Assembly: GCA_030632085.1 (NCBI GenBank)
Contig: DAOVJY010000001.1
Location: 142,289 to 206,288, forward strand
DNA: 64,000 bases
Reading direction: 5' to 3'
From: Candidatus Omnitrophota bacterium
Lineage (GTDB): Bacteria > Omnitrophota > Gorgyraeia > JAGLLT01
A model generated the notes under the pieces. That model was not told the origin of the DNA and did not search any database. It was given only the letters and a program-made list of their open reading frames with translations. Positions 7,785-38,467 of this stretch are shown here, piece by piece (position 1 is the first letter of the stretch; every line of letters begins with the position of its first letter). A program made the translations under genes and the position numbers.

Positions 7785-8201
7785 TTAGCTGCGGCCTTTA
7801 CCTTCTCCTCCGCGGCTACCGCCGCCTCGTCCCCCGTGACCACCGCGACTATTGGTGTATCCGCCGCCGTATCCGCCGCCGCCGCCACCGTGTCCACCGC
7901 GGCTGCTGCCGCCATATCCACCGCTGCTACTATATCCGCTCCTACTGCCGCCGCGATCTTCGCGAGGGCGAGCTTCGTTCACCTTAAGCTCTCTTCCTTT
8001 TAACTCTTTGCCATTTAGGCCATCGATTGCCGCCTGGCCTTCTTCATTAGAGGGCATCTCCACAAAACCAAATCCTTTTGATTGACCATTATACTTGTCT
8101 TTAATGATGCTGACCGATTCAACCTCTCCGAATTCCGCTACAGCCTGCCGTAAGTCATCTTCAGTGACCTCATACGACAAATTTCCTACATAAATCTTCA
8201 T
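7785..8201 (-). CDS. RRM-domain RNA-binding protein with Gly-rich (RGG/GGYGG) tail
   Basis: IYVGNLSY (RNP2) and KGFGFVEM (RNP1) motifs are followed by a glycine/arginine-rich tail. This resembles cyanobacterial Rbp and cold-shock glycine-rich proteins. Confidence 0.85.
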   Translation of the reverse strand: MKIYVGNLSYEVTEDDLRQAVAEFGEVESVSIIKDKYNGQSKGFGFVEMPSNEEGQAAIDGLNGKELKGRELKVNEARPREDRGGSRSGYSSSGGYGGSSRGGHGGGGGGYGGGYTNSRGGHGGRGGGSRGGEGKGRS

Positions 8202-9315: not shown

Positions 9316-9762
9316 CTAAGGATATTTATCTTTAATCCATTTTTGAATCTTGGGGTCATTCGGGTTATGTGAAACATAGCCCTTTTTAACGAATTTCTTA
9401 AACTCTTCATAGGGATCGTTTTTGCTGCCGGACTTACGTATATGGCCTTCATCATTCAAATATAAATAAATTATAATCAAAGGGTTGCTGGAAAAACAGA
9501 AAATAATGCGATAACGCTGTAATCCGCTCTTATAACGCCTGTATTTTTTCAGATCTCTCTTAAGGCGATATTCAGGAAGATTCGGATCTTGGGGGATGAT
9601 ATTTTGATCGGCATTGCGGATACGCGCGGCAAGTTTTACAATCTCATGCTGTTTATAATCTTTATTTGATAATTTTGCTTTTAAAGCTTTGACTTGCTCT
9701 TTTAAACCTGAAACGCGAAGATAATAGTGATGATGATATTTCAAAACATATTTATTCACCAT
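9316..9762 (-). CDS. RelE/ParE-superfamily toxin
   Basis: YRLKRDL...YRIIFCF...IIIYLYLNDEGHIRK matches the RelE/ParE YRIIY...IGHRK pattern. It overlaps the upstream antitoxin gene by 11 nt. Confidence 0.6.
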   Translation of the reverse strand: MVNKYVLKYHHHYYLRVSGLKEQVKALKAKLSNKDYKQHEIVKLAARIRNADQNIIPQDPNLPEYRLKRDLKKYRRYKSGLQRYRIIFCFSSNPLIIIYLYLNDEGHIRKSGSKNDPYEEFKKFVKKGYVSHNPNDPKIQKWIKDKYP

Positions 9763-10051
9763 CTACTTCAATACCCTCAAGAAGCTTGTCCCACTCCTTA
9801 TCCCAGACTTCTTTAACATTTCTTAACTTATCTGGATGCTTTAAGGCATCTTTTATCAAAGCCTCTACAAATGAATGAAAAAGAGGGTCAGCTTCAATAG
9901 TATCAAGATTATTTTGGGCGCGGATACTAATCTTGTCCTGCGCACTTTCTATAATCACTTCTTTAGTACCGGTGTGTCTCACAAAATCCATAGGTATATC
10001 TACGGCATAACTGCCGCCATGCTTAAACAATTTTTTAACTGCAGTTCTCAT
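9752..10051 (-). CDS. AbrB/MazE-fold antitoxin partner of the RelE-like toxin
   Basis: 99 aa with a GGSYAVDIPMDFV swapped-hairpin-like N-terminus. The antitoxin-first operon layout is preceded by a TTGACA-17-TATACT promoter on the minus strand (about 10090-10125). Confidence 0.5.
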   Translation of the reverse strand: MRTAVKKLFKHGGSYAVDIPMDFVRHTGTKEVIIESAQDKISIRAQNNLDTIEADPLFHSFVEALIKDALKHPDKLRNVKEVWDKEWDKLLEGIEVDGE

Positions 10052-10240: not shown

Positions 10241-11239
10241 CTATTCTTTTAACTTTTTCCTCAATCCAAAAACTCCAAACAACCCCGCGCCTAAGAGTAA
10301 AATGGTCGAGGGTTCAGGGACAGCATAAACGTCTATCCTGTTTATAAAATAATCGCTTTCTTCCATTAACATATCCAAATCATTTATATATCGAGGAAGA
10401 AAAGTATCATACGTATACCAACTGGTCATTGGAGGCACGGCAGATACCGCAGAATGAACACCAAATAGCGTCAACTCCCCGCCCCATAATACAAAGGTTG
10501 GACTGCTAGAATCTCCTCCCACGGCCCCGGCATTATCAGGATAGCCGGGATCTGGACCTAAACGATTGTAGTTTTCCTCGCTACGAAAAAGGGAAGAAGC
10601 ATATAATGTCTGTTCATAGGCATTAGCAGGGCAGTGATAACCAAAACTACCTATTTCATTATTGCGTCCTACCTGCGCGCCTTGGCCATAAAGATATATA
10701 TTACTTTCAACTTGCGCACCGAGAGAGGTTCCCCACCAGTTTACATCATAATAAGGAGAACTTGGATCATCGGTATCCAGAATAGAATAGTGGGAAATCT
10801 TGTCAGCCTCAGACACAGTTTCACTAAGCCAACCAAGGGCAAGATCACAGGGATGAGAACCGAATTCATTAACATTGTCAATAACGCGGGAAGAATATTT
10901 ATTAACTGTATAAGATTTCAGTTGCCCTTCTCTGTTTATGAAGTTAATTGTGTTTCCAGTGGGCACTTTCCAGTGATTGGCGCAAACAAAATGTTGCGGC
11001 GATACCATTGTCACGCTGCGCGATGACATGCCCATGTCCCACCCTACACCCGACCAGTCATATTGTGAAGCAAAAAAATCAGGGTTGTTTACAGGATTAC
11101 CGGCATATGTTCCCGGATTAAACCTGTCATGCCGAGCGGGATTATACCCGTTTATTTGCAGGGCTTGAGCGTTTGCGGAATAACCAATACCCAGAAATAG
11201 TAAGAAAATCGCTGTCCATTTAGGTAAATTCATATACAT
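10241..11239 (-). CDS. PEP-CTERM sorting-signal secreted protein
   Basis: An N-terminal signal peptide is present. The C-terminus VPEPSTILLLGAGLFGVFGLRKKLKE is a VPEP motif followed by a TM helix and a basic tail. Confidence 0.75.
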   Translation of the reverse strand: MYMNLPKWTAIFLLFLGIGYSANAQALQINGYNPARHDRFNPGTYAGNPVNNPDFFASQYDWSGVGWDMGMSSRSVTMVSPQHFVCANHWKVPTGNTINFINREGQLKSYTVNKYSSRVIDNVNEFGSHPCDLALGWLSETVSEADKISHYSILDTDDPSSPYYDVNWWGTSLGAQVESNIYLYGQGAQVGRNNEIGSFGYHCPANAYEQTLYASSLFRSEENYNRLGPDPGYPDNAGAVGGDSSSPTFVLWGGELTLFGVHSAVSAVPPMTSWYTYDTFLPRYINDLDMLMEESDYFINRIDVYAVPEPSTILLLGAGLFGVFGLRKKLKE

Positions 11240-11465: not shown

Positions 11466-11714
11466 CTATGCCTTTTTGTCTTCAGCTTTTTTAACACGGA
11501 TTTTATTGCTGGCAACTTTCTTATTGTTCAAGCTTTTTATCGCAAATTTGGCTTCTTCTGGTTTCAGCATTTCAACAAAACCAAAACCCTTGGATCCACC
11601 GGTGGATTTATCTAACACCAAATCACAAGATTGTACGGCGCCATATTCTTCAAAGAGAACTTTTAATTCTTCTTCGGTAGTACTACGAGCAAGATTAAGA
11701 ATTATTAATTTCAT
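11466..11714 (-). CDS. RRM-domain RNA-binding protein (short, no Gly tail)
   Basis: LIILNLARS (RNP2) and KGFGFVEM (RNP1) motifs are present. It is a paralog of the gene at 7785..8201. Confidence 0.8.
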   Translation of the reverse strand: MKLIILNLARSTTEEELKVLFEEYGAVQSCDLVLDKSTGGSKGFGFVEMLKPEEAKFAIKSLNNKKVASNKIRVKKAEDKKA

Positions 11715-18759: not shown

Positions 18760-18903
18760 AAACTCTAAATTCTAATATCTAAATCCTAAATAAATTACAA
18801 ATTCTAATTTCAAAATTACAAAACAAAACAACTAATAACCGTTTTGAGTTTGGAGCATTTGAGTTTTGATATTACTTAGTATTTAGTGCTTAGTGTTTAG
18901 AAT
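18760..18903. repeat. ~145-bp imperfect palindromic element (CTAAATCCTAAA...TTTAGGATTT-like arms) between leuD and leuB
   Basis: The arms are homologous to the element at 40125-40285 (TAAATTACAAATTC, TTAGTATTTRGTGCTTAGT, TTAGRATTT). Confidence 0.6.
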
Positions 18904-19398
18904 TTATTTTTTTAGTGTCGCCATCAGGCCGCCGGCATCCATCACAGACTCAATGAACTTCGGAAACGGCTCTGTTTTATAAGTTTCATTTTTAGTTAAA
19001 TTTGTAATAATCCCTTTAGTTAAATCAACTTCCAGCTTGTCATGCTCTTTTATCTTATCCGCTTCAGGGCATTCTAAAATAGGTAATCCCATATTAATAC
19101 TGTTTCTAAAGAATATCCTGGCAAAACTCTTAGCTATAACACAGCTAATACCGCAGCCTTTAATGGCCATAGGAGCATGTTCTCTTGAAGAGCCACAGCC
19201 GAAGTTCTTTTTGGCAACTATAATGTCACCCTTAATGAGATTTTTATGAAAATCCTTTTTCTTATCTATAAAGCAGTATTTCGCAAGTTCTACGGCATCT
19301 GTCATATGTAAATGTTTAGCCGCAATAATCTCATCTGTATTTATATCATCTCCGAAAAGATGGGCTTTACCAGTTAAAACAAATTTATCTTTTTTCAT
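18904..19398 (-). CDS. leuD: 3-isopropylmalate dehydratase small subunit (short archaeal-type)
   Basis: LeuD/aconitase swivel domain, coupled to leuC by a 4-nt overlap. Confidence 0.85.
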
Positions 19399-20672
19399 TT
19401 TATTTCTCCCGGGTGTGTTATATGGCCTGTAATAGCTGAAGCCGCGGCTACGGCCGGATTTGATAAATAAACCTGGCTTTCTACATGCCCCATACGGCCG
19501 ACAAAGTTTCTATTGGTTGTAGCCAGGGCCACCTCACCCTTATCCAAAATACCGCAATGGCCGCCTAAACAGGGCCCGCAGGTAGGCATGGTAAAGACGC
19601 CGCCGGACCTAACAAAAATATCAACCAGGCCTTCTTTTATGGCCTCTAAATATATCTTCTGGGTTGCGGGAATAACTATTAAACGCATCCCCTTTTGAAC
19701 CTTTTTACCTTTTAAGATACCGGCCGCTTCTCTTAAATCACTTATCCTGCCGTTTGTACAAGAACCGATTACAACCTGGTCTAATTTAATCTTATTTAAC
19801 TTATTAACCGCTTTAACGTTTGAAGGCAGATGCGGACAGGCAACCTGCGGCTGCATATCCGAAAAGTCATATTCTAAAACCTCGCTATAAACAGCGTCTT
19901 TATCGCTCTTATAAAACTCAATATCTCTTTTGATACCGTTTTCTTTCATGCGTTCTTTGACATATTCTTTAGTTATTTCATCGGCAGTTATTATACCGTT
20001 TTTACCTCCGGCCTCAATTGCCATATTACACATGGTAAAACGGCCGTCCATGGACAGCTGTTCTATTACGGGGCCGGTAAACTCCATAGCTTTATATATA
20101 GCACCGTCAACACCTATTTGACCAATAGTGTATAAAATCAAATCTTTACCGCTAACCCATTTATTTAATTTACCTTTATAAATAAACTTAATTGTCTCCG
20201 GCACTTTAAACCAGACTCTTCCGGTCGCAAACGCGAATGCCAGGTCGGTTGAACCGACTCCGGTAGAAAACGCCCCCAGAGCCCCATAAGTACAGGTATG
20301 TGAGTCAGCTCCAATTACTAAATCTCCGGGTAAGACTAAACCCTTCTCAGGCAATAAAGCATGCTCGATACCCACTTGCCCAAGTTCAAAGTAGTTGGTT
20401 ATCTGATGCTTATCCGCAAACTCCTTTAACTTTTTACAGTTGGCGGCACTTTGCTGATCCTTTGCCGGTGTAAAGTGATCAGGCACTAAGGCAATCTTAT
20501 CTCTACTAAAGACTTTCTTAACTTTAGCCTTCTCAAACTCATTAATGGCAACCGGTGCGGTAATATCATTACCCAGGCATAAGTCTATCTTGGCGTCAAT
20601 AAACTCACCCGGTGCGATTGATTTCTTATTAGTGTGATTCAATAATATTTTTTCTGTTATTGTATAACCCAT
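19395..20672 (-). CDS. leuC: 3-isopropylmalate dehydratase large subunit
   Basis: Aconitase-family catalytic domain with Cys ligands (CTNGR, CGPC). Confidence 0.85.
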
Positions 20673-20689
20673 CTTTTTCCTTATATTTA

Positions 20690-21097
20690 TTATAGAATGA
20701 TTTCTATAGCGTGATATGGACAGATGTCAACGCAGAGCCCGCAGGCAATGCATTTACTCTTATCAAAGGTAACGGTCATCTTCTCTCTATTGACGCTAAA
20801 CGCTTTGGTAGGACAGATTCCAACACATGCCGTGCAGTGAATGCACTTCTTCTTATCCCATTTAATATCACTGGTTAACGATTGAGTATTAGCACCTATC
20901 TCATGTAAATACTTAAGGCCTTTCTCAAGGTCTTCTTTTTTACCTGTAAGCTCAACCACTAAAAGGCCTTCTTCGTTAGGCATTACTCTGGCCTTCATGA
21001 TGTTGACTATCAGGTTATAATCCTTTACCAGGTGATATGTTATGGGTTTTTCAACTAATTGATGCGGAAAAGTTATAACTACTCTTTTCTTGACCAT
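20690..21097 (-). CDS. NIL-domain / 2x[4Fe-4S] ferredoxin-domain protein
   Basis: [12 protein letters not shown] and [12 protein letters not shown] clusters follow a NIL-like N-terminal domain. Confidence 0.65.
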
Positions 21098-21233
21098 ATT
21101 TTCTCCTTAAAATTACGAGTTTATTATACACAGATTAGGAATTATTGGCAAGCTTTTTTAGAGAAAATAGTTGGATTGCGGCTAGGGCGCCTGAGCACCG
21201 CGTACCACTTCGTAGGTGGAAATAGATTTTAGG

Positions 21234-21262
21234 TTGAATATTCAGCATATCTTATGTATAAT
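21234..21262 (+). promoter_or_regulatory. Near-consensus sigma70-type promoter TTGAAT-17-TATAAT (TG-extended), upstream of mntA/hepT
   Basis: TTGAATATTCAGCATATCTTATGTATAAT. The same module appears at 22132-22160 (plus) and as reverse-complement copies upstream of minus-strand genes. Confidence 0.7.
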
Positions 21263-21351
21263 ATATATAGTTTAAAAAAGCTTTAAAAGAAAGCTTAGTT
21301 ACTAATTGGCAGATGGAAAAAAGATAAAATTTCAGAAAGTGTTCTAATTAT

Positions 21352-21621
21352 ATGATTACTGAATCTGATAAAAAAACAATTGAGGAAATATCTAAGCGAT
21401 ATCACGTAAAGCGTGTGATGATATTTGGGTCAAGCTTATCTTCATCCGAGGAAAGCCGCGATATTGATATTGCCGTGGAAGGAATTCCTTCGAAGGATTT
21501 CTATCGTTATTATGGAGATCTTATATTCGCTCTGTCAAAACCAGTGGATATTGTTGACCTTTCAGGTACATCAAAATTTTCAAAACTAATTAGGCAGGAG
21601 GGTACATTCCTCTATGGCTGA
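21352..21621 (+). CDS. mntA: MntA-type minimal nucleotidyltransferase antitoxin (HepT/MntA type VII TA)
   Basis: GS...SRDIDIAV nucleotidyltransferase motif is present. It is followed by a HEPN gene with an 8-nt overlap. Confidence 0.75.
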
Positions 21622-22029
21622 TTATAAAATACGTATTGAAGCTGAATATGAATCTATTGAAAAAACTATTTCTTCTCTTCCCGAAATACCTTTATCGCAA
21701 CTTTCAGAGCTAGAACTTGCCGGAGTAGCAGCCTTGCTCCATAATTTTATAATGGTATCGAAAATGTTCTAAAACAGGTATTTCAGAAATCAGGGTTCCA
21801 AATACCTCAAGGGGCATCCTGGCATAGAGATTTACTTCTTGAAGCTGTAGATAAAAAGATTATTTCTACCTTGCTTATGGATAATTTAAAACGTTTTTTG
21901 GCTTTCCGGCATTTTTTTGGACACGCGTATGCTTTAGATCTTTTTCCAGAGAGAATGGAACCTCTCGTTTCAGATTCCTCGAATGTATTCAAACAGTTTA
22001 AATCTGAAGTAAATAAAGCAATAGACTAG
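21614..22029 (+). pseudogene. hepT: HepT (HEPN) toxin interrupted by a -1 frameshift in a T-tract (~21746-21749)
   Basis: Frame 1 gives [45 protein letters not shown] then a stop. Frame 2 continues [15 protein letters not shown]...[12 protein letters not shown] with the R-x4-HxY HEPN motif. Inserting one T into TTTT restores [13 protein letters not shown]. Confidence 0.65.
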
Positions 22030-22042
22030 CAAACTATAAATA

Positions 22043-22061
22043 AAAGGTGTCTGTCCCCTTT
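22043..22061 (+). repeat. Family-A hairpin copy, 13 nt after the plus-strand hepT stop
   Basis: Same plus-strand orientation as copies following minus-strand genes. Confidence 0.9.
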
Positions 22062-22131
22062 AAACCCTTTAAAAGAGTAAATCACCTTCATTTGGTATAT
22101 ATTCAGGCTTACTTAAATCAAACGCATAAGT

Positions 22132-22160
22132 TTGAATATTCAGCGTATTTTATGTATAAT
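22132..22160 (+). promoter_or_regulatory. Promoter TTGAAT-17-TATAAT plus conserved leader to the GTG at 22228
   Basis: The leader ...AAAGTTCCTTAAAAAACGAAGTTTGTATATTTATTGTTAGGAGAAAAAAG is shared with the minus-strand copies. Confidence 0.7.
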
Positions 22161-22227
22161 ATATGTATACCGTTAAAGTTCCTTAAAAAACGAAGTTTGT
22201 ATATTTATTGTTAGGAGAAAAAAGAGA

Positions 22228-22494
22228 GTGACTAAAAAACTACAGATGGTATTAAGCAGATTGTTATTGGTTTGCGCTTTGTTAGTTTTGGCAGTTGTCT
22301 TCCATATGGTTCTTGTGGTTCCCAAAGCTATGTCGCAGGCAAGTGACATGGCAAGACAGCTTTCGGCTCCCGAGAAGTTCGTCTACAACCTTAGCGGCAT
22401 ATGCATCACATACTGGATTCTTATCATCCCGATTCTTGTTTTCATCGTAATTGGAGCAATAATCTGGGTGATGGTTTCGAGAATTGAAACATAG
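22228..22494 (+). CDS. Small membrane protein (GTG start)
   Basis: 88 aa with two TM helices. It lies about 65 nt downstream of a consensus promoter plus conserved leader. Confidence 0.45.
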   Translation: MTKKLQMVLSRLLLVCALLVLAVVFHMVLVVPKAMSQASDMARQLSAPEKFVYNLSGICITYWILIIPILVFIVIGAIIWVMVSRIET

Positions 22495-22721
22495 AAGAAT
22501 TCCGCTAACAACGCGCCGCAACAGATTCCGAAATGACGGAACCGCTGAGTTCAAACGCAAAATAATAAATAATATAGAAACGTACTATACGCTTAAAATC
22601 ATAGTATATATTTTTTATGTAGAATTATTGCGAGCTTTTTTAGATAAAACGTTAGATTGCGGCTAGATATCCTCCGCACCCTGTACCATTTCGTAGGTGT
22701 TATTAGAATGACAAATAAATA

Positions 22722-22740
22722 AAAGGTGTCTGTCCCCTTT
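22722..22740 (+). repeat. Family-A hairpin copy
   Basis: 72 nt from the stop of methyltransferase 22813..23517. Confidence 0.9.
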
Positions 22741-22812
22741 TCCCTTTTTCTTTTTATTGGAAAATATTTATTTTTAAGAAAAAAGGTTCTGGGTATTTTT
22801 TACCTTCATTTA

Positions 22813-24965: not shown

Positions 24966-25135
24966 AAACCCCCTTTAAACCGTAATTTACCTATGATATG
25001 CAGAGTACGTTGTCCGAGGCTTAGCCTCGGACATAAAATAGCCTCGGAGGTGGTATGTGGGGATTAGGTTTGAGTTTGGATATTTGGTATGTTCTATGTA
25101 TAATGTATATCGGTGGGATTAAAGGTCTAAACTAA

Positions 25136-36487: not shown

Positions 36488-36757
36488 CTATTCATAATGT
36501 GTCCACATTCGGAGTATCTTTACAGTCTTGATATCTTTCAATATTTGGTAAACTAACCTATGATGAATATTAACACGACGAGAATATGCTCCAACTAAAT
36601 CTCCAACTAACTTTTCAAAAGATGGTTGCTGCTGGAAAGGATTATTGTTAAGGATTTCTAATAATTCTTCTACTTTTGGACGTAATCCCGAGGCATTAAT
36701 CTTTTTGGCATCTTTTTGAGCTTGTTTTGTGTAAACCAAGCGCCATTTCTTCACCAT
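36488..36757 (-). CDS. yoeB: YoeB/Txe-family toxin
   Basis: W.LVYTKQA...YSRRVNIHHRLVYQI..VKILRMWTHY matches YoeB. The likely start is MVKKW, which overlaps the yefM stop. Confidence 0.8.
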   Translation of the reverse strand: MVKKWRLVYTKQAQKDAKKINASGLRPKVEELLEILNNNPFQQQPSFEKLVGDLVGAYSRRVNIHHRLVYQILKDIKTVKILRMWTHYE

Positions 36758-37002
36758 TTCAGCACTTTGCTGCATTTTTCAACAGGTGTTTTGAGCCCTT
36801 CCCGTATTGATTTTCTCATCTCGGGGATTGACAATAAATAAAGTGTTTCCTTTACCGCGTTCCAATCATCAGTAGACACAAGAACAGCATTTGCCCTCTT
36901 GCCTGTAATCTGAATCGGCATATGAGAAGAAGCCGTTTCATCTAATAGTTTGTATAGTTTTGTTCTTGCTTCAGTTACGGTTATTGTTTTCATAATAATC
37001 AC
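36751..37002 (-). CDS. yefM: YefM/Phd-family antitoxin
   Basis: TVTEARTKLYKLLDE...VLVSTDDWNAVKETLYLLS matches Phd/YefM. A TTGACA-17-TATATT promoter and AGGTGA RBS lie upstream on the minus strand. Confidence 0.8.
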   Translation of the reverse strand: MIIMKTITVTEARTKLYKLLDETASSHMPIQITGKRANAVLVSTDDWNAVKETLYLLSIPEMRKSIREGLKTPVEKCSKVLKW

Positions 37003-37210: not shown

Positions 37211-37402
37211 TTATTTCTGACTCTCAAATGCCTCATCCATGGAAACAGTTTCACCTTTTTTCATTTCTTTTACAGACTGAGCAATGCTTTTTCGAAAGCC
37301 CGGAATCGAAGATAAATATATTGTTTCCTCTTGGGCTTTCAAATCGTCCCCAACTGATACATAAACATCATTCTCTAATTTATTGCTCGTCATAAATAGC
37401 AT
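37211..37402 (-). pseudogene. Truncated second Phd/YefM-like antitoxin fragment (C-terminal half only)
   Basis: NDVYVSVGDDLKAQEETIYLSSIPGFRKSI aligns to the C-terminal half of the YefM at 36751..37002. The upstream 37403-37513 is open in another frame with no toxin partner. Confidence 0.4.
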
Positions 37403-37513
37403 CCTTTTCGTTATCCCACAACTCTTTCAAAACGATGTCTTCCTCCAGATGAATAGTAAGTAATTTTAACTCTTTTTCTTCAGTAATTCGCTGTAAATAT
37501 TTAGGTATATTTT

Positions 37514-38467
37514 TCACAATACCTTCTCCAGCCTATCCCCGCTTGCTAATCTAAAACCAATTAAAAAATCAGTATCATCCAGGGGTTTTTTGCCCTCTTG
37601 TTGTAAGCTAAGCAGTCTAATATAGCCATTTTTACATTTAACGACTAAACCTTGCTTCTTGTGAGCTAATGCCACTTCGGAGGGTTTATAATCCCTATCC
37701 TCTAATAAATCACTAGCTACCTCAATCACCCGGCTCTTAAGAACCTTTATTCTTTTGTCCTTAAAGAAAAAATAAGCTCCCGGCCAACCGGATGTACCTC
37801 TTATTAAATTATGAACTTCCCGGGCATCTTTATTCCAAACAATCAACCCATCTTCTTTCTTTAGGGCTCTGGCAAGCGATACTTTACTTTTGTCTTGAGG
37901 AGTGAAAATAATTTTGCCTTCAATAATTTCATCAATAACTTCTAAAATCATTTCACCTGATAAACCGGACAACTTATCTGAAAGCGTCTGCGCATTATCG
38001 TCCGAACTTATATCCAGTTCTTTTATATTAGCTATCTCACCCGCATCCATACTATTATTTATCTTAAAAATACTCACACCAGCCTTAGCCTCCCCGTTTA
38101 TCAGCGCCCAGTTTATGGGTGCCGCTCCTCTGTATTTTGGTAAAAGCGAGGGATGGATATTAATTGAATATAGTTTAGGAAGATTGAAGATGCTTTCAGG
38201 TAAAAAACTGCCATAAGCACAGACAACATAGATATCAGCTTTAATCTCGCGAAGTTCATTTAGGGCATCAAATGGTTTTTTATATTCAAGCACTTTTTGC
38301 CCCTTACTTAGAGCTAATTTCTTTACAGGCGACTGCATTAGCCCCAATGACCTGCCGCCTTTGCTATCGGGCTGGGTTACAACGGCCTCAACTCTATGTT
38401 CACTCGCCCAAAGCCTTTTAAGAGGCTCTAAAGCAAACTCCGAAGTACCAAAATAGACTATTTTCAT
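37514..38467 (-). CDS. fmt: Methionyl-tRNA formyltransferase
   Basis: MKIVYFGTSEFA start and an SLLPKYRGAAPI motif are present, with the C-terminal Fmt domain. Confidence 0.85.
   Translation of the reverse strand: MKIVYFGTSEFALEPLKRLWASEHRVEAVVTQPDSKGGRSLGLMQSPVKKLALSKGQKVLEYKKPFDALNELREIKADIYVVCAYGSFLPESIFNLPKLYSINIHPSLLPKYRGAAPINWALINGEAKAGVSIFKINNSMDAGEIANIKELDISSDDNAQTLSDKLSGLSGEMILEVIDEIIEGKIIFTPQDKSKVSLARALKKEDGLIVWNKDAREVHNLIRGTSGWPGAYFFFKDKRIKVLKSRVIEVASDLLEDRDYKPSEVALAHKKQGLVVKCKNGYIRLLSLQQEGKKPLDDTDFLIGFRLASGDRLEKVL

Follow-up and report, generated by a model that had tools for sequence, protein, structure and literature searches.

Characterised MntA antitoxins attach AMP residues to the RX4HXY tyrosine of their partner HepT by means of a GSX10DXD motif, and this modification blocks the HepT RNase (PMC7641770; PMC13000451). 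The roles of the RX4H RNase motif and of the AMPylated tyrosine have been described for the characterised HepTs (PMC7641770). Among solved structures, the closest relative of both proteins considered here is the type VII HepT/MntA pair of Shewanella oneidensis (SO_3166/SO_3165; PDB 5yep, 6m6u/v/w, 7bxo; Yao et al. 2020, PMC7641770), in which the MNT gene comes first and overlaps the toxin gene, the toxin carries R-X4-H-X-Y with its acceptor tyrosine, and the transferase carries GS...DXD. Structures are also available for the HEPN/MNT pair of Aphanizomenon flos-aquae (PDB 7ae2, 7ae6, 7ae8, 7ae9), whose entry titles describe a mono- or di-AMPylated HEPN toxin and its complexes with the MNT antitoxin, and for YutE of B. 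subtilis (PDB 1ylm, UPF0331/DUF86), which shares the HEPN fold.

We analysed a 64,000-nucleotide stretch of DNA from a Candidatus Omnitrophota bacterium (hereafter the window), which holds a module of this general design on its plus strand. An mntA-like gene at 21352-21621 encodes an 89-residue minimal nucleotidyltransferase, the presumed antitoxin, from an intact open reading frame. It is followed by a hepT-like pseudogene at 21614-22029, which with one T restored would encode a HepT-like_2 HEPN RNase toxin of 138 residues. The first-pass annotation had described an MntA/HepT pair in which a missing T disrupts the toxin, and the reading frames, the match to Pfam family PF20797 and the alignment with orthologues all agree with that description. 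In our judgement it is probable that a real and recent deletion, private to this lineage, shortened a run of five T residues (T5) to four (T4) and thereby inactivated hepT of a HepT-like_2/MntA-like module, as part of ordinary early decay.

According to this explanation, intact relatives would make the 89-residue nucleotidyltransferase first, apparently from a leaderless mRNA, with synthesis of the 138-residue HEPN RNase translationally coupled to it, and the transferase would then silence the RNase by AMPylating the RX4HXY tyrosine. In the window, the deletion would truncate the toxin after residue 45, before R99 and H104, and leave no active RNase; the cassette would thus stand at an early stage of decay, its own promoter eroded and its antitoxin reading frame still intact. 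A frameshifted toxin beside an intact antitoxin is a routine stage in the decay of toxin-antitoxin systems and matters little alone. The HepT-like_2 family to which the toxin belongs is large and very conserved, with about 1,900 matches, and we found no experimentally tested member of it in the literature.

Family, fold and relation to characterised systems

With its missing base restored, HepT scores 71.9 bits against PF20797 (HepT-like_2; cut-off 27), and the match spans positions 2-105 of the 110-position model. The toxin matches this Pfam family only, and neither PF01934 (DUF86) nor PF08780. Against the NCBIfam model HepT_toxin (NF047751) it reaches 13.6 bits, below the cut-off of 60. The partner protein behaves similarly, with 35.3 bits against Polbeta (PF18765; cut-off 26.9), 21.9 bits against NTP_transf_2 (cut-off 21) and 28.6 bits against MntA_antitoxin (NF047752), again below a cut-off of 60. 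PADLOC assigns the MntA-like protein to the candidate system PDC-S09 only and HepT to nothing. Thus the type VII MntA/HepT assignment made at first pass is borne out by the motifs, the adjacency of the genes and the fold, and not by the Pfam DUF86 family or the NCBIfam equivalog cut-offs. A label of HepT-like_2/MntA-like describes the pair better, and the 52-residue open reading frame and the region downstream of it should be annotated as one pseudogene.

Structural comparison was carried out on a model of the orthologue P0001 (87% identical), built from 38 homologues, and not on the restored window sequence. The model is an all-helical bundle with a pLDDT of 91.8. HEPN toxin or HEPN-domain chains take all of the first 37 places among its PDB matches, with S. 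oneidensis HepT, in complex with MntA, at the top (TM score 0.73-0.77). The A. flos-aquae toxin has the same fold as the model (TM 0.62-0.71), although sequence identity is 12-15% and the A. flos-aquae proteins are longer. YutE is similarly close in fold (TM 0.73), but its sequence similarity is marginal (E = 1.2 with the profile); several homologues of our toxin carry the JGI label 'YutE (UPF0331/DUF86 family)'.

At the level of sequence, PDB searches with HepT or MntA as single sequences returned nothing meaningful. The toxin family profile reaches the S. oneidensis HepT chains marginally (E = 0.05), aligning LAFRHyFsHAY with GLRNIAVHDY, and a profile of ten MntA orthologues has S. oneidensis MntA (5yep_A) as its best PDB match (E = 1.2e-5). 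In the HMMER alignment to 5yep_A, the elements GS...DIDI...VD.VDL are aligned with a one-residue gap where the S. oneidensis protein has an extra residue, and the motif of the window protein accordingly reads GSX9DXD, not GSX10DXD. The residues concerned are strongly conserved within the family: R99, H100, H104 and Y106 of HepT are invariant in 38 homologues, and G26, S27, D37, I38, D39, D66 and D69 of MntA are invariant in ten orthologues. In the window, translation places the MntA catalytic codons G26-S27-X9-D37-X-D39 at 21427-21468.

The S. oneidensis system therefore resembles ours in its MNT-first gene order, its motifs and the size of its toxin (133-139 residues, versus 138 here), and differs from it in several other ways. 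Toxin identity is 17-20%, the family is DUF86 (PF01934) rather than PF20797, MntA is 139 residues long instead of 89, the spacer in the transferase motif is X10 instead of X9, and only the toxin described here is frameshifted. By analogy with these characterised relatives, which share 12-20% identity with the toxin, we infer that intact members of the subfamily would use the same AMPylation and RNase mechanism.

Much closer relatives exist in the locus's own family, which pairs PF20797 toxins with 89-residue Polbeta (PF18765) proteins. Its members, at 66-87% identity, have the same architecture of 89 plus 138 residues and the same 8-nt gene overlap and upstream promoter, and come mostly from metagenome bins of Desulfobacterales or Syntrophaceae type. 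Each of the relatives examined is in frame; what sets the window copy apart is its T5-to-T4 deletion and the changes in its promoter. In the window the overlap between the two genes is ATGGCTGA at 21614-21621, and the same letters are kept in the closest orthologues, with ATGCCTGA in more distant ones. The MNT gene lies upstream of, and is co-oriented with, the HEPN gene, an arrangement seen in 8/8 orthologue loci, and the hepT Shine-Dalgarno sequence, GGAGGG, lies inside the 3' end of mntA. In other genomes the pair of 89- and 138-residue genes adjoins HigBA, VapBC, an Unstab_antitox gene, a restriction-modification pair, a Y1 transposase or unrelated metabolic genes, and judged by these different contexts the mntA-hepT module is mobile. 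A scan of IMG/VR with the family alignment yielded no relatives and so gave no sign of a phage-borne module in that collection.

The frameshift in hepT

Six-frame translation and the list of open reading frames both show that the hepT reading frame, which starts at 21614, ends after 52 codons at a premature TAA (21770-21772) in the shifted frame. The truncated product consists of 45 native residues followed by seven out-of-frame ones (IMVSKMF). In the -1 frame, no stop codon occurs from 21745 until the normal one at 22027-22029, and this stretch encodes the WHRDLL and RHFFGHAY segments. The toxin frame is thus intact on both sides of the T run, as had been claimed at first pass from the sequence. 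The position of the shift is confined to 21745-21769, because the downstream frame is closed by a TAA at 21742-21744 and the upstream frame terminates at 21770-21772. Within this interval, only one homopolymer, the TTTT at 21745-21748, lacks a base relative to the orthologues; the run had earlier been placed at about 21746-21749, and its actual position is one base further left.

Insertion of a single T changes the site to CAT AAT TTT TAT AAT GGT, encoding H-N-F-Y-N-G, and produces a protein of 138 residues, so the expectation that one extra T would give a full-length HepT proved correct. The RX4HXY motif is likewise preserved as R99-X4-H104-X-Y106 of the restored frame; its codons (R99-H-F-F-G-H104-A-Y106, 21907-21930) no longer share the frame of the start codon. 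A search with the restored protein found 1,878 homologues at about 99% coverage. Among the best 120 of the 1,878, alignments span 97-100% of the restored HepT, and 113 of these 120 proteins are exactly 138 residues long. The restored protein departs from columns conserved at 90% or more at three mild positions only (S14, G103 and V133), two of which are common to its nearest intact relatives. Judged by these alignments, the presence of an intact, restorable HepT frame is far beyond chance.

The break falls between residues 45 and 46, in the middle of helix 2 (residues 32-60 in the model of P0001), and the truncated product has neither three of the helices nor the catalytic R99 and H104; it therefore cannot be an RNase. 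We also considered internal restart at TTG 21871 or ATG 21877, which we reject: no Shine-Dalgarno sequence lies upstream, and the product would comprise the last 50-odd residues only, without helices 1-3.

Comparison of the T run across orthologues had been proposed as a check on the lesion. We compared the window with the closest available orthologue DNA, from P0001 (87% identity), P0002 (86%) and P0003 (74%), and the coding-region alignment with these three contains a single gap, which falls in the T run, where the window reads AA-TTTTA against AATTTTTA. A more distant locus, L017, also has T5 (AATTTTTA) and is in frame. None of these four has T4, and in all of them the context is AAT TTT TAY, coding N44-F45-Y46. 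In other orthologues the run is broken by synonymous codons, with AAT TTC TAC in L013, L018 and L022 and AAT CTT TAT in L021. At this site the frame is unbroken in each of the eight distinct orthologue loci. Based on the alignment and on this site comparison over nine loci, the window carries a one-base deletion relative to an ancestral T5. Separately, a hairpin at 21722-21740, just 5' of the T run, is encoded by the conserved residues AGVAALL and is found in the in-frame orthologues as well.

A change of one base in the length of a homopolymer is a classic artefact of sequencing or assembly, and it might be supposed that T5 is the true state of the organism and that its toxin-antitoxin pair is ordinary and intact. 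All T4 records do trace to one contig or sample: the entries for the 52-residue product in NCBI, ENA and Logan all come from one lineage, on a contig of 413,928 bp, the assemblies are probably from one sample, and a systematic error may be common to all assemblies of the same run. Yet indel errors at runs of four to five bases are rare on the Illumina HiSeq X, and consensus errors at such runs are not expected. Run SRR13892601, from sample RS_11 of reductive sediment at the Site-F cold seep in the South China Sea, was sequenced on an Illumina HiSeq X Ten in 2x150 format with Q30 above 94% (about 95%) and assembled with MEGAHIT (PMC9357000). The Logan contig SRR13892601_528743 (3,301 nt) is 100% identical to window positions 18765-22065, T4 included, and gene calling on it yields the same 52-residue product. 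An assembly error is unlikely because this independent assembly is identical throughout. Furthermore, there is no sign of homopolymer frame breaks elsewhere in the 64-kb window, where non-overlapping open reading frames of at least 100 residues (median 297) cover 86% of the sequence despite more than 600 A/T runs of at least five bases, and where two other toxin-antitoxin pairs, PrlF/YhaV (9316-10051) and YefM/YoeB (36488-37002), are intact. We consider an artefact unlikely on these grounds. The source population may nevertheless hold a minority T5 allele.

No second lesion was found in hepT. Compared with its two nearest relatives, the window has a dN/dS of 0.12-0.16 over the whole of hepT and of 0.09-0.13 downstream of the break, and the value for the window's own branch in the downstream part is 0.15; intact pairs range from 0.06 to 0.20, which covers the window's downstream range. 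As judged by these ratios, too little time has passed for relaxed selection to mark hepT. Continued translation of the frame beyond the break would be expected to keep dN/dS low there as well.

The lesion appears in this lineage alone. No intact protein at least 90% identical to the restored HepT is present among 5.8 billion protein clusters, in which the best match is 87% identical, and pattern scans of 185,579 species genomes and of the JGI metagenomes for this lineage's T4 or T5 allele gave no match. Degenerate T4 scans of the same two collections found no frameshift in any family member. Their 2 + 1 matches, from Caldithrix, Ignavibacteriaceae and one metagenome contig, are in-frame members in which Gln replaces Asn (LAQFYNGIEN), and we discarded them as false positives. 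Since the degenerate scans returned only in-frame members, the hepT lesion is not a conserved feature of the family.

These searches also bear on the idea of a reversible, phase-variable toxin, switched between T4 and T5 by slipped-strand mispairing. In keeping with such a switch, the lesion lies in a homopolymer, a single insertion restores the gene, and the hepT frame downstream is still pristine. The run is only T4, however, with T5 in relatives, which is far short of contingency tracts; known contingency loci have tracts of about seven to eight bases or more for useful rates of switching. A T5 allele of the lineage is missing from the protein clusters, neither allele was recovered by the scans of species genomes and metagenomes, and the OFF state occurs in no other family member, though several use the T5 codon choice. 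Phase variation is accordingly an explanation to which we attach very little probability. Of the three options offered at first pass, then, recent inactivation is the one we favour, while sequencing error is unlikely and phase variation finds no support.

A different way to keep the gene in use would be recoding, either by programmed -1 ribosomal frameshifting or by RNA polymerase slippage at A-AUU-UUA, so that some full-length HepT is made. The geometry of the site is suggestive in one respect, as tRNA-Phe on UUU 21746-21748 could re-pair with UUU 21745-21747, the next codon would then be UAU, and the slip would give the exact family sequence H-N-F-Y-N-G; the low dN/dS of the downstream hepT frame could be read in the same way. 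But the site has no X-XXY-YYZ heptamer: the zero frame is AAU-UUU-AUA, in which the A-site AUA cannot re-pair, leaving slippage to the P-site tRNA only. The 89 nt downstream (21752-21840) fold at -13.2 kcal/mol, with z = +0.8 against shuffles, and thus form no stable structure, and no Shine-Dalgarno-like stimulator is suitably spaced from the site. A T4 run is, moreover, too short for known transcriptional slippage. Finally, 8/8 orthologue loci are in frame, and the shift is found in no homologue, such that nothing about it is conserved. Recoding is in our view very improbable.

The antitoxin gene and its promoter

The intactness of MntA reported at first pass holds for the open reading frame and fails for the conserved promoter in front of it, which is altered in the window. 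In 8/8 orthologue loci, an extended -10 element, TGnTA(T/C)AAT (TTGATATAAT in L021), is followed after exactly 6 nt by the mntA ATG, and in 6/8 a -35 element, TAGA(C/T)(A/T), lies about 17 nt upstream of the -10. With a spacing of 6 nt, transcription would usually begin at the A of the ATG itself, and hence the mRNA would be leaderless. This promoter geometry suggests leaderless expression of mntA across the family, and the conserved TGnTATAAT-N6-ATG arrangement is of interest for that reason beyond the locus described here.

Comparison with the eight orthologue loci identifies a remnant of the family promoter abutting mntA in the window (21321-21351, plus strand). Its -10 element reads TGtTCTAAT (21340-21348), with C at the second and most critical position of the hexamer, and is separated from the mntA ATG by only 3 nt, versus 6 nt in the orthologues. 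The -35-like box reads AAGATA where orthologues have TAGATA, an A in place of T, and no good Shine-Dalgarno sequence precedes the mntA ATG in the window. With consensus spacing as the guide, these changes should weaken or misplace transcription of mntA. The damage to the promoter looks like a second sign of decay, one that was not part of the first-pass annotation. About 90 nt upstream of mntA, a promoter-like match to the consensus, TTGAAT-N17-TATAAT (21234-21262, plus strand), might supply a leadered transcript.

The retention of an intact mntA raises the possibility that the gene is deliberately kept as an orphan against incoming mobile HepT toxins, in the manner of an anti-addiction module, and that loss of the toxin was selected. 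The mntA reading frame and all of its catalytic residues are intact, its dN/dS against orthologues is low (0.11-0.12), and related intact modules, with toxins 74-86% identical, co-occur in the same cold-seep sample series. The altered family promoter before mntA, together with the missing Shine-Dalgarno sequence, argues against maintained expression, and, given how recent the lesion is, an intact mntA frame carries no information on selection. We regard selected retention of this kind as very unlikely. A more elaborate version holds that the T4 allele is not dead, that occasional -1 slippage of tRNA-Phe on U-UUU ahead of AUA, or rare replication slippage between T4 and T5 in the population, yields a trickle of full-length HepT, that the frameshift serves as a very tight throttle on toxin dosage and that MntA is kept as immunity; this combination strikes us as very improbable. 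Were it true, the immunity conferred by MntA would act against the related intact modules in the same sediment.

Setting of the module in the window

The module lies in the window's largest stretch without a long open reading frame (21098-22812), flanked on both sides by minus-strand genes, namely a NIL-ferredoxin/leuCD operon that ends at 21097 and, starting from 22813, a weak methyltransferase-like gene. A direct duplication of about 70-80 nt brackets a 1.5-kb island that contains the mntA-hepT pair. Its left copy (21148-21226, plus strand) overlaps the promoter of the minus-strand NIL-ferredoxin/leuCD operon, and its right copy (22630-22707, plus strand) is 76-90% identical to the left. Relatives of the NIL-ferredoxin operon keep the promoter and do not keep the outer 45 nt; the contigs of these relatives (n = 3) end about 135 nt (62 nt in L012) upstream of the NIL-ferredoxin gene. 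We rejected a reading of the flanking repeats as integron cassette (attC) sites, as they are direct copies of the promoter region of the neighbouring operon and not imperfect palindromes. A scan of the whole window against Rfam at gathering thresholds gave no match, which means that the flanking repeats do not represent a known RNA.

Directly 3' of hepT is a REP-like 20-mer, AAAAGGTGTCTGTCCCCTTT (22042-22061, plus strand), which by repeat count occurs in 10 copies in the window, all on the plus strand, where none would be expected by chance. The Logan contig ends at this copy. Beyond it, at 22132-22160, lies a second, near-identical copy of the promoter-like TTGAAT-N17-TATAAT site found upstream of mntA.

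Conservation and reach of the mntA/hepT family

The HepT-like_2/MntA-like family is unusually conserved, with 66-87% identity and lengths fixed at 89 and 138 aa, and it appears to have no tested member. When the 50 nt upstream of the antitoxin gene mntA were compared across distinct in-frame loci (L002, L003, L004, L013, L017, L018, L021 and L022), the arrangement TGnTATAAT-N6-ATG proved strikingly conserved, being kept in all eight. Such retention, read from sequence, implies that the antitoxin of this family would be translated from a leaderless message. More distant members, in a Caldithrix sp. MAG (L007), an Ignavibacteriaceae MAG (L008) and a third locus (L009), are likewise in frame and have the same two-gene architecture at 28-35% identity, together with the motifs LAQFYNGIEN and FRHV..H.Y. 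Their membership thus extends the module beyond Desulfobacterota-type bins.

A hairpin beside the hepT T run

Directly 5' of the T run at which hepT is frameshifted lies a 7-bp hairpin (GGAGTAG...CTTGCTCC, 21722-21740), which together with ATAATTTTAT forms a terminator-like arrangement within the coding sequence. Because in-frame orthologues share the hairpin, it is probably a by-product of conserved hepT codons. It might favour replication slippage at the T run.

Repeats in and around the toxin-antitoxin island

A direct duplication of ~70-80 nt, with copies that are 76-90% identical (left, 21148-21226; right, 22630-22707), encloses a 1.5-kb island containing the toxin-antitoxin pair and a small 88-aa ORF (22228-22494). 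In its left copy, the duplication overlaps the -35 region of the NIL-ferredoxin/leuCD promoter, which reads on the minus strand. This promoter is common to related genomes, where the outer ~45 nt of the duplication (CACCTACGAAGTGGTAC...GCCGCA) differs; no Rfam match was found for that outer segment. The mntA gene and the 88-aa ORF are each preceded by a promoter-like box of 33-39 nt (TTGAAT-N17-TATAAT plus flanks; 21234-21266 and 22132-22164, 90% identical), and a weaker copy lies at ~25073-25111.

A REP-like intergenic 20-mer, AAAAGGTGTCTGTCCCCTTT, occurs 10 times in the window, always in the same orientation on the plus strand (7763, 8484, 9260, 10210, 11759, 13170, 22042, 22721, 24946 and 25388), where none would be expected by chance. 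It could represent a short element of the hairpin or terminator type. One copy immediately follows the hepT stop codon, and the independently assembled Logan contig ends at this same copy.

Other toxin-antitoxin units and small ORFs

Two further units, both on the minus strand, have intact toxins: a YhaV-like toxin (PF11663, E = 3.5e-26) with an overlapping PrlF-like antitoxin, a weak match (9316-9762 and 9752-10051), and a YoeB/ParE-like toxin paired with a Phd/YefM antitoxin (36488-37002). Just upstream of the latter, two short overlapping minus-strand ORFs (37211-37517), one with a faint Phd/YefM C-terminal match (E = 0.045), may be the remnant of a broken second antitoxin; a 39-nt repeat (36381 and 37035, 92% identical) stands ahead of each unit.

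From translation reading only, two small minus-strand ORFs (7785-8201 and 11466-11714) resemble RRM-type RNA-binding proteins, one bearing a long Gly/Ser/Arg-rich tail, and the ORF at 10241-11239 has a PEP-CTERM-like C-terminus.
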